Below are positions 1-780 of a stretch of 780 nucleotides of DNA, piece after piece. A program made the translations under genes and the position numbers. Every line of letters starts with the position of its first letter. Position 1 is the stretch's first letter. The DNA comes from Escherichia coli (GTDB taxonomy: Bacteria; Pseudomonadota; Gammaproteobacteria; Enterobacterales; Enterobacteriaceae), in the NCBI RefSeq assembly GCF_003334355.1, contig NZ_QOWP01000101.1; one strand, given 5' to 3'. The notes beneath the pieces were generated by a model. That model saw only the letters and a program-made list of their open reading frames with translations. It was not told where the DNA came from and did no database searches.

Positions 1-328
1 CGGATATTGGCGCACCTCCGCAGCTACTGGCAAAATAGCCAGGACTCCACAAAACGCCTTTGTAGTAATACCTGACTGCAATATCTGGTCGATCTCGTCG
101 CAGTAACCTACCCGATACGCCTTTGAGGCTGTTTACCAGACTGGATATCGCCAGTTTGGGAGGATAGTTAATTAACAAATGGACGTGATCTGGTTCGCCA
201 TCCATTTCAACCAGTTCAGTTTCAAAATCAGCACATACATTTGAAAAGTAAGTGCGTAGTTTTTCTGTCGCGTCATAGTCAAAAATCTGACGTCGGTATC
301 TGGTGACAAAGACCAGATGAACATGCAT
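1..328 (-). CDS. tnpA: IS200/IS605-family Y1 (HUH) transposase TnpA; 3' end continues past position 1; alternative in-frame upstream start at ATG 391..389
   Basis: Minus-strand translation from ATG 328..326 is open to the window edge: MHVHLVFVTRYRRQIFDYDATEKLRTYFSNVCADFETELVEMDGEPDHVHLLINYPPKLAISSLVNSLKGVSGRLLRRDRPDIAVRYYYKGVLWSPGYFASSCGGAPIS. It shows the beta-1 motif HLVFVTRYRR (compare YHIVWCPKYRR in IS608/IS200 TnpA), the HUH motif DHVHLL (plus coords 179-187) and the catalytic Tyr context SPGYFASSCGGAP (Tyr codon at 37..35). The same frame stays open upstream to ATG 391..389 (adds MILWSVKKETDIRRGRHCVFL) and closes at TGA 445..443. Neither start has a strong Shine-Dalgarno (GGAAGG is about 16 nt upstream of ATG 328). 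Confidence 0.88.
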   Translation of the reverse strand, partial: MHVHLVFVTRYRRQIFDYDATEKLRTYFSNVCADFETELVEMDGEPDHVHLLINYPPKLAISSLVNSLKGVSGRLLRRDRPDIAVRYYYKGVLWSPGYFASSCGGAPIS

Positions 329-370
329 CAGGAAAACACAATGCCTTCCACGCCGGATATCGGTTTCTTT

Positions 371-404
371 TTTCACAGACCAAAGTATCATTTGGCCTGT
401 GAAA
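371..404. repeat. Imperfect inverted repeat / predicted stem-loop: 14-nt arms with one A/C mismatch and a 6-nt loop
   Basis: Left arm 371-384 TTTCACAGACCAAA, loop 385-390 GTATCA, right arm 391-404 TTTGGCCTGTGAAA. Thirteen of 14 positions pair; the single mismatch is 379 A against 396 C. It overlaps the tnpA alternative ATG (391..389) and the tnpB candidate GTG (399-401), and is preceded by a T-rich tract (363-373). Confidence 0.6.
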
Positions 405-509
405 CGACTACAGGCATTTAAATTCCAGTTAAGACCAGGTGGTCAACAGGAGCGTGAAATGAGGCGCATGTCGTTTCGTTTTCAATCGTGCTCTGGCGCT
501 TCAGAATGA
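399..509 (+). pseudogene. tnpB: Frame-0 ORF fragment carrying the conserved TnpB N-terminal motif, out of frame with the tnpB body; likely the original tnpB 5' end separated by a frameshift
   Basis: From GTG 399 in frame 0: VKRLQAFKFQLRPGGQQEREMRRMSFRFQSCSGASE, stop TGA 507-509. AFKFQLRP matches the TnpB N-terminal consensus KAYKFRLYPtkeQ. There is no ATG in this frame before 459. After residue M (459-461) the family-like sequence continues only in frame +1 (GACRFVFN from 463). Confidence 0.5.
448..452 (+). promoter_or_regulatory. Shine-Dalgarno-like AGGAG, 6 nt upstream of ATG 459-461
   Basis: AGGAG at 448-452, spacer CGTGAA, then ATG at 459. The ATG is in frame 0, which terminates at 507-509, so it yields only a 16-codon ORF unless the frame is corrected. 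The motif could also simply be coding sequence (QE) of the frame-0 N-terminal fragment. Confidence 0.3.
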
Positions 510-780
510 GAATCATGAGGCCGGTAATAAATACATCCCTTACGGGAAAATGGCTTCCTGGCTGGTTGAGTGGAAAAACGCCACTGAAACGCAATGGCTT
601 AAAGATTCTCCCTCACAGCCATTGCAACAGTCACTGAAAGACCTTGAGCGGGCTTACAAAAACTTCTTCCAGAATCGGGCTGCTTTTCCCCGATTCAAAA
701 AGCGGGGACAGAATGATGCATTCCGCTACCCGCAGGGCGTTAAGCTCGATCAGGAAAACAGCCGTATTTTTCTGCCGAAA
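463..780 (+). CDS. tnpB: TnpB/OrfB (IS605 OrfB family, RNA-guided nuclease family), N-terminal region only; continues past 780; 5' end frame-disrupted, so start is undefined and this may be a pseudogene
   Basis: Frame +1 translation 463-780 has no stops: GACRFVFNRALALQNENHEAGNKYIPYGKMASWLVEWKNATETQWLKDSPSQPLQQSLKDLERAYKNFFQNRAAFPRFKKRGQNDAFRYPQGVKLDQENSRIFLPK. It matches recalled TnpB N-terminal signatures: G-x-CRFVYN (here GACRFVFN), L-x-x-AYKNFF, FP+FKKK (here FPRFKKRG) and I-x-LPK. An in-frame TGA sits at 460-462 directly before the conserved Gly. The first canonical start in this frame is ATG 550-552. Confidence 0.8.

Follow-up and report, generated by a model that had tools for sequence, protein, structure and literature searches.

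Bidirectional promoters of Escherichia coli are pseudo-symmetric: the -10 elements of the two strands coincide, and the divergent transcription start sites (TSSs) are most often 18 bp apart, in other cases 10 or 23 bp (Warman et al.; PMC12825309; bioRxiv 10.1101/2020.01.31.928960). The DNA considered here is a 780-nucleotide stretch of an E. coli genome (assembly GCF_003334355.1, contig NZ_QOWP01000101.1; “the window” below is this whole stretch), a decayed copy of the E. coli insertion sequence (IS) IS609, of the IS200/IS605 family, with a near-perfect palindrome between its divergent genes tnpA and tnpB (insQ). The reading we favor, at a probability of roughly 0.68, is that this palindrome forms the central, pseudo-symmetric part of a compact sigma-70 promoter that works in both directions, serving tnpA leftward and tnpB rightward, and whose symmetry has been extended in the IS609 lineage. 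Like known bidirectional sigma-70 promoters, it is a short pseudo-symmetric segment with opposite-strand -10 elements and a short fixed distance between TSSs (25 nt here; an ideal mirror would give 23), to which RNA polymerase would bind in one orientation at a time. Unlike the published ones, its symmetry reaches 14 of 14 positions per side and takes in both start codons, both of its genes lack a 5' untranslated region (UTR; the tnpB mRNA is leaderless), and it is part of a mobile element, the -35 region of each gene falling in the coding sequence of its partner. Its parts, in window coordinates, are:

371..404, no strand: near-perfect palindrome of 34 bp, with 14-bp arms and a 6-bp centre; putative core of the bidirectional tnpA/tnpB promoter, together with both gene starts
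374, minus strand: native tnpA-sense TSS, from both IS609 copies of strain EDL933, one of them at the same ytfA site as the window copy
399, plus strand: native tnpB (insQ) TSS, on the first base of the GTG start codon, from the K-12 copy
374..376, minus strand: tnpA start codon conserved in the family; the window has GTG, relatives and some E. coli alleles have ATG
399..401, plus strand: start codon of tnpB, GTG here; every relative not of the chromosomal Escherichia lineage has ATG
382..389, minus strand: candidate tnpA-sense -10 element, GATACT (389..384) or TACTTT (387..382), TATACT in relatives, belonging to TSS 374
386..391, plus strand: candidate tnpB-sense -10 element in the conserved block ATTATACT; it reads TATCAT here and TATAAT in most relatives, and the TSS and start codon of tnpB follow after 7 nt
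377..383, minus strand: spacer TTGGTCT from the tnpA -10 to the tnpA start, non-coding, conserved across genera as TTGG(T/C)CT; inner part of the left arm
392..398, plus strand: spacer TTGGCCT from the tnpB -10 to the tnpB start, hypervariable in other genera, mirroring the tnpA-side spacer in Escherichia IS609 and so giving the long stem

The positions at which transcription begins carry most of the argument. In Cappable-seq data from O157:H7 EDL933, tnpA TSSs are recorded at 5331051(-) and, for the second IS609 copy, at 3334151(+), both of them in all 8 conditions (PMC10469882 Table S5). Placed with the annotation and sequence of NZ_CP008957.1, and with the coordinates read as 1-based because the thrL TSS stands at 148 in the same table, both fall on the third base of the conserved tnpA start codon, window 374. 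For K-12, SMRT-Cappable-seq gives an insQ (b1432) transcript with a forward TSS at 1503656 (PMC6131387 supplementary file 4); this table was taken as 0-based, thrL being listed in it at 147 vs 148, which moves the insQ TSS to 1503657 of NC_000913.3, the G of the insQ GTG and, transferred by alignment, window 399. The tnpB mRNA is leaderless: its TSS is on the first base of the start codon with no Shine-Dalgarno (SD) sequence upstream, and even with the table convention reversed the leader would be 1 nt long. Because both TSSs lie inside the arms, neither native RNA holds both arms (the tnpA-sense RNA keeps 4 nt of the repeat and the tnpB RNA 6 nt), and neither can form the hairpin; folding of both native 5' ends shows no notable structure. 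Literature searches for a TSS or for regulation of IS609 or insQ found nothing direct. The K-12 dataset also lists a “novel” ydcL-insQ (b1431|b1432) transcript covering NC_000913.3 1502347-1504865 (PMC6131387; our locus L202), which starts at the ydcL promoter, crosses the left end of IS609, runs antisense through the tnpA pseudogene yncK and continues into insQ.

With these starts in place, the palindrome can be taken apart into promoter and gene-start components. What looks like the loop and the top of the stem would be two -10 hexamers on opposite strands sharing a core (they overlap by 4 bp); the inner arms, 7-8 bp, would be the two 7-nt spacers, each between one -10 and its gene start; and the outer 6 bp are the two start codons, each with its following Lys codon, (A/G)TG AAA, read divergently. 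Transcription begins within each arm, at 399 for the leaderless tnpB and at 374 in the tnpA sense, the latter 9 nt from the -10 if this is GATACT and 7 nt if it is TACTTT. The divergent TSSs are close together and the overlapping -10 elements stand at workable distances from them, which is the geometry of a bidirectional pseudo-symmetric sigma-70 promoter. In a Serratia relative, a promoter scan finds TTGAAG-18-TATACT ending 7 nt before the ATG.

The symmetry itself is not in doubt. A first-pass annotation of the window by a model had described 14-nt arms with a single A/C mismatch and a 6-nt loop at 371-404, and this description is exact: the arms, 371-384 (TTTCACAGACCAAA) and 391-404 (TTTGGCCTGTGAAA), are 93% complementary and 6 nt apart, the sole mismatch being A379/C396 on the plus strand, a G.U pair on the minus strand. 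As RNA the repeat folds at -14.8 kcal/mol (z -5.5) on the plus strand and -18.4 kcal/mol (z -7.0) on the minus strand, with 0 of 200 shuffles folding as well on either strand; as DNA, the folds come to -9.4 and -10.9 kcal/mol. The annotation had made a stable fold in context a test of its proposal, and the stem is retained on both strands in 66- and 121-nt RNA contexts. When the window was shuffled 3000 times with its dinucleotides preserved, an equally good inverted repeat (14-nt arms, at most 1 mismatch, loop of 3-10) appeared once. Also borne out is the placing of the repeat on a region controlling expression and overlapping both gene starts: the tnpB GTG (399-401) and both candidate tnpA starts, the ATG at 391-389 and the conserved codon at 376-374, fall within it. 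An intrinsic (rho-independent) terminator can be rejected, in agreement with the annotation, since on neither strand is the stem followed by a U-tract (the plus strand reads CGACTACAGG, the minus strand AAAGAAACCG) and a terminator scan makes no call there; a permissive Rfam scan has no match at the repeat. Separately, a consensus scan picks out two small terminator-like sites on the plus strand, one within 352-373 (GCCGGATATCGGT then TTCTTTTTTC), just 5' of the repeat, and one within 395-415 (GCCTGTGAAACGACTACAGGC), which competes with the right arm.

For comparison of this junction a genome scan supplied 43 loci, to which were added others from plasmids and viruses and 120 metagenomic copies. 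In every IS609-like relative the tnpA-sense strand reads ...CGTTT CAT (7 variable nt) ATTATACT TTGG(T/C)CT ATG A(A/C)A AAA GAA..., in which the conserved 8-mer ATTATACT supplies a hexamer for each gene on its own strand, TATACT for tnpA and TATAAT for tnpB, with 7 nt between hexamer and start codon; the equivalent of the 8-mer in the window is the “loop” plus the top of the stem. The two starts are 22-23 bp apart in relatives (in five of them, the intergenic spacers given by the Prokaryotic Genome Annotation Pipeline, PGAP, are 21-22 nt), and the difference between 22 and 23 nt means that the stretch is non-coding. No SD-like motif precedes tnpA or tnpB in any IS609-like relative. Conservation of the tnpA-side spacer TTGG(T/C)CT extends from Enterobacterales to Xylella, Caballeronia and Victivallaceae; the tnpB-side equivalent is hypervariable.

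Complementarity of the tnpB-side spacer to TTGG(T/C)CT is 7-8/8 in Escherichia and about 4/8, the chance level, over about 23 other lineages (a partly manual count). Outside Escherichia, in about 25 related lineages, the only symmetric pairs are the outer ones of the start codons and the inner 7-8 pairs are mostly unpaired, at the level of chance, with exceptions in Caballeronia (7/8) and in three distant lineages (6/8); 34-mers equivalent to the repeat fold at about -1 to -9 kcal/mol in other genera, vs -18.4/-14.8 here. The first-pass annotation had looked to compensatory base changes in related copies for confirmation of a functional stem; these were not found, the inner arms being non-complementary outside Escherichia and covariation inside it being that of shuffled alignments. 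In the Escherichia IS609 lineage, then, a freely varying tnpB-side spacer would have become the reverse complement of the conserved tnpA-side spacer. Point mutation is unlikely to have given 7/7 complementarity, and a single templated, quasi-palindrome-correcting mutation was probably behind this extension, or else past selection. Such correction, which proceeds by template switching and is known from the work of Ripley and of the Lovett laboratory, perfects an imperfect inverted repeat by clustered substitutions, and the change from imperfect to perfect repeat in one lineage resembles it, although for IS609 the event is deduced from its outcome only. The resulting near-perfect 14-bp palindrome would since have drifted by transitions: every allele can be derived by a few of them from a perfect ancestor, TTTCAT AGGCCAAA TTATAC TTTGGCCT ATGAAA.

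Variation within Escherichia carries no signal of selection. Across 14 Escherichia-lineage alleles 94.9% of cells are paired, with no excess of covariation over shuffles (113/500) and only one double-sided change, at pair 6, which belongs to both start codons. One-sided transitions giving G.U pairs number 5 on the tnpA-sense RNA and 3 on the tnpB-sense RNA; strand-specific selection on RNA, considered when most mismatches in the first alleles were G.U on the tnpA-sense RNA, was rejected with these counts from more alleles. Among 97 haplotypes the density of segregating sites is 0.176 in the hairpin and 0.110 and 0.119 in its flanks, and pi is 0.044 in the hairpin and 0.018 and 0.023 in the flanks. 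Chromosomal IS609 copies evolve like pseudogenes, even where their open reading frames (ORFs) are still open: no codon position is favored among their non-singleton polymorphisms (11:10:10 in tnpA and 10:13:11 in tnpB, window-equivalent 71-353 and 419-704). Zero transposition of IS609 was seen in K-12 mutation-accumulation lines (PMC5009759). All 10 metagenomic alleles retain a stem, and allele stems range from -11 to -18 kcal/mol; in copies on plasmids, which have ATG starts and -10 boxes matching the consensus, only the core GCCAAA/TTTGGC and the outer pairs are left, at -8.8 to -13.5 kcal/mol, with pairs 7-8 broken. Two alleles of the ybcM-yedF insertion (L003 and L004) differ at 14 of 133 positions in 2203-2335, vs about 1.3% elsewhere. 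Their excess of substitutions at the hairpin was set aside as a hairpin-specific signal, a gene-conversion patch of about 140 nt accounting for it; the patch suggests a short conversion from a more diverged IS609 donor.

Several points weigh against a plain bidirectional promoter with incidentally extended symmetry. The tnpB TSS was mapped in K-12 and the tnpA TSS in EDL933, that is, in different strains and different copies of the element, and the tnpA TSS sits 2 nt inside the start codon, not on its first base: of the conserved codon the native E. coli RNA has the third base alone, and full-length TnpA may be untranslatable from it. (The next in-frame tnpA AUG downstream of that codon is at window 324.) A promoter scan of the window itself calls no promoter that passes consensus. 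Our own estimate for reaching 7/7 complementarity by point mutation is about 4e-4 per lineage, so that selection for structure is possible; the templated origin is drawn from the outcome alone, neither an intermediate nor direct evidence having been found; and the Caballeronia copy has a stem of -13.0 kcal/mol, on the tnpA-sense strand only, that is apparently independent of that in Escherichia.

The strongest competitor is a role for the palindrome in RNAs initiated outside it. IS10 and IS50 begin their native transcripts inside an inverted repeat, and read-through RNAs alone carry both arms and fold over the translation start; protection from outside transcription in these elements, for one gene with an SD sequence, is said to have been shown experimentally in work by Davis, Simons and Kleckner in 1985, Krebs and Reznikoff in 1986 and Schulz and Reznikoff in 1991. 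By analogy, the IS609 palindrome might have been selected to fold in host read-through or antisense RNAs, burying the SD-less start codon downstream while the native RNAs escape. The first-pass proposal of an mRNA stem-loop occluding the start codons fails for the native RNAs and is conceivable on read-through transcripts only. The geometry fits, since both native TSSs are within the arms, and the ydcL-promoted b1431|b1432 transcript of K-12 is a read-through RNA that crosses the whole repeat; when folded in the ydcL-insQ context the stem is kept and would bury the insQ GUG. The stems are strong throughout (-11 to -18 kcal/mol, and present in every one of the 10 metagenomic alleles), the complementarity is hard to reach by drift, the one double-sided change preserves pair 6 within the start codons, and Caballeronia has its separate tnpA-sense stem. 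As in IS10 and IS50, native mRNA is without the 5' arm and read-through RNA has both; pairing, however, has not been maintained in evolution. Elsewhere in the family the stem is missing, complementarity in the roughly 23 other lineages being no better than chance; there is no covariation above shuffles, and diversity exceeds that of the flanks; the G.U transitions, 5 vs 3, show no strand preference; and pairs 7-8 are broken in the plasmid-borne copies, which have ATG starts and consensus -10 boxes. Protection would presumably add little in any case, an SD-less internal start being poorly translated anyway, and identical geometry arises automatically from promoter symmetry. Unlike its IS10/IS50 counterpart, shielding in IS609 is a geometric possibility, would involve two divergent SD-less genes, and is not conserved in the family. 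The hairpin would be foldable only in RNAs entering the junction from outside, the start codon downstream then being buried, with no sign of selection for this, and we consider selected protection of this kind unlikely. A stricter form of the idea, in which the extended palindrome is a selected dual insulator, its 34-nt structure on either strand blocking translation of both SD-less divergent genes in read-through RNAs only, is to our minds just as doubtful.

Function at the level of DNA, as an operator for a dimeric protein or as a cruciform, either of them occluding the shared -10 region and both promoters, is improbable; the protein-binding operator suggested in the first-pass annotation has no support. 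It would draw on the near-perfect dyad centred on the overlapping -10 boxes, on the AT-rich centre, and on DNA hairpins of -9.4 and -10.9 kcal/mol, but there is no regulator gene in the element, relatives do not share the dyad, and both promoters are constitutive (all 8 conditions). Stems as short as 14 bp rarely extrude in vivo, which counts against a cruciform. A CRP-like operator was rejected from the sequence: the half-sites, TCACA...TGTGA, face outward, 20 bp apart, wrong in both orientation and spacing for CRP.

The first-pass annotation also raised the possibility that the repeat is an internal binding site for TnpA on single-stranded DNA, similar to the subterminal imperfect palindromes of the element, and this is highly improbable. 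Like the subterminal palindromes of IS608 and ISDra2, the repeat belongs to an IS200/IS605 element and can form an imperfect hairpin; the transposase of the element recognises hairpins, and the repeat folds as DNA at the energies just given. The comparison with the element's own ends is unfavorable: in the intact O157:H7 copy at the ytfA site (locus L002), the left-end hairpin is CCCCGTCC-TTCA-GGGCGGGG (about 1821-1840) and the right-end one CCACGTCC-TTCA-GGGCTTGG (about 3521-3540), GC-rich 8-bp stems with a TTCA loop and CGTCCTTCAGGGC in common, and they show no similarity to the AT-rich 14-bp stem at 371-404, which, unlike them, is internal and differs in stem length, composition and loop. 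The repeat is absent from other genera, and it is dispensable in tnpB-only derivatives, which retain left and right ends without it: on Salmonella and Klebsiella plasmids the same left end directly precedes tnpB.

These derivatives have features of their own. In those of Salmonella pESI and Klebsiella plasmids (L050 2420-2502; L052 2425-2502) about 22 nt, containing TTAAAATAGC, separate the left-end hairpin from tnpB, homology to IS609 starts exactly at the tnpB start codon, and a -10-like TAAAAT stands 6 nt before the ATG with no SD sequence; their tnpB may be leaderless too. The left-end hairpin is nested in a longer inverted repeat with 20-nt arms (GCGCCGTAAAACCCCGTCCT/AGGGCGGGGATATACGGCGC; L002 1809-1850, also L050, L051 and L052). 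Host sequence preceding the insertions is alike from site to site (TTATCCGGT, TTATCCAGT, TTATCCGAT, TACCCCGGT), and may be a target motif or resemble a transposon-associated motif (TAM).

Least probable of all is a cis-repressor of the IS200 type, a stem-loop at the 5' end of the native tnpA or tnpB mRNA sequestering the ribosome-binding site, the possibility that the first-pass annotation had put forward for tnpA: it has a real precedent in IS200 and a strongly folding repeat across the annotated start codons, and it founders on TSSs at 374 and 399 inside the arms, which leave 4 and 6 nt of the repeat on the native RNAs, on there being no SD sequence to sequester, no Rfam match and no conservation in relatives, and on a different, GGAGG-containing stem in IS200-like relatives (L039-L047). 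In IS200 itself the inverted repeat at nt 69-138 lies in the native 5' UTR, downstream of the TSS, and sequesters a strong SD sequence, AAGGGGGU (Beuzon et al.; Ellis et al. 2015, PMC4513863). The two have in common their IS family, an inverted repeat near the tnpA start and a proposed limit on transposase translation; they differ in that both TSSs lie within the IS609 repeat, which has no SD sequence and no sequence similarity to that of IS200. In L039-L047, which are tnpA-only and have about 50% TnpA identity, a GGAGGG(N)4CCCTCC-like stem stands just upstream of tnpA, consistent with the classical SD-sequestering stem-loop of IS200 and unrelated to the IS609 repeat.

The window element belongs to IS200/IS605 as a member of IS609 (the name used in PGAP and in the K-12 annotation), with a Y1 HUH TnpA, a TnpB and subterminal hairpins at both ends; annotation and NCBIfam profiles, matched by the window proteins at 145.7 bits (transpos_IS200) and 383.9 bits (guided_TnpB), confirm the divergent tnpA/tnpB junction recognised in the first-pass annotation. 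The window sequence has matches in 4996 of 5426 complete E. coli genomes. This copy is inserted in the TetR-family pseudogene ytfA, flanked by yjfZ and ytfB, the site at which L002 is intact; according to PGAP its tnpA is truncated and its insQ/tnpB frameshifted. Its remaining features are:

1..376, minus strand: tnpA (IS200/IS605 Y1 HUH transposase), 5' part, running off the start of the window; from annotation and profile match
399..780, plus strand: tnpB/insQ (RNA-guided endonuclease), 5' part, frameshifted; from annotation and profile match
389..391, minus strand: non-conserved ATG annotated by PGAP as the tnpA start; other copies have ATT or ATC in its place, and transcription was mapped to begin downstream of it, at 374

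The tnpA ATG at 391 arose by a T-to-G change within the -10 box and is a lineage-specific codon; PGAP itself places the tnpA start at the conserved codon (376-374) in L187 and L189-L192. The frameshift in tnpB is an 11-bp deletion at about 461/462 between AGGCGC direct repeats (AGGCGCTTCGCAGGCGC to AGGCGC), which looks like a classic slipped-strand deletion. Among the loci compared, short contigs assigned to Streptomyces (the Streptomyces mutabilis contig L019, 2057 bp), a Chlamydia metagenome-assembled genome, Collinsella and Paceibacterota (L048, L042 and L043) carry enterobacterial-type IS609/IS200-like sequence, and the junction of L019 is nearly identical to that of a Proteus copy (L029); assembly contamination is the likely explanation for these assignments.

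Bidirectional promoters are already known, and the present case is best filed as one with leaderless or near-leaderless starts inside a mobile element, its symmetry extended in one lineage. For the hairpin itself this is deflationary: its strength in silico would reflect the DNA symmetry of a two-way promoter, not a structural element of RNA or DNA. Were the protective role in read-through RNAs true instead, IS609 would have a two-gene version of the IS10/IS50 shield built out of a bidirectional promoter. Under the promoter reading, both genes of IS609-like elements would be driven by one bidirectional promoter in a 22-bp spacer. Thousands of E. coli genomes have tnpA annotated from the ATG of window 391, a codon that is upstream of the mapped TSS and is not the family-conserved start, and K-12 makes its ancestor-type RNA-guided nuclease, insQ/TnpB, from a leaderless mRNA that begins with GUG. 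These findings bear on studies of native TnpB and TnpA expression and on the re-use of IS609-like elements.

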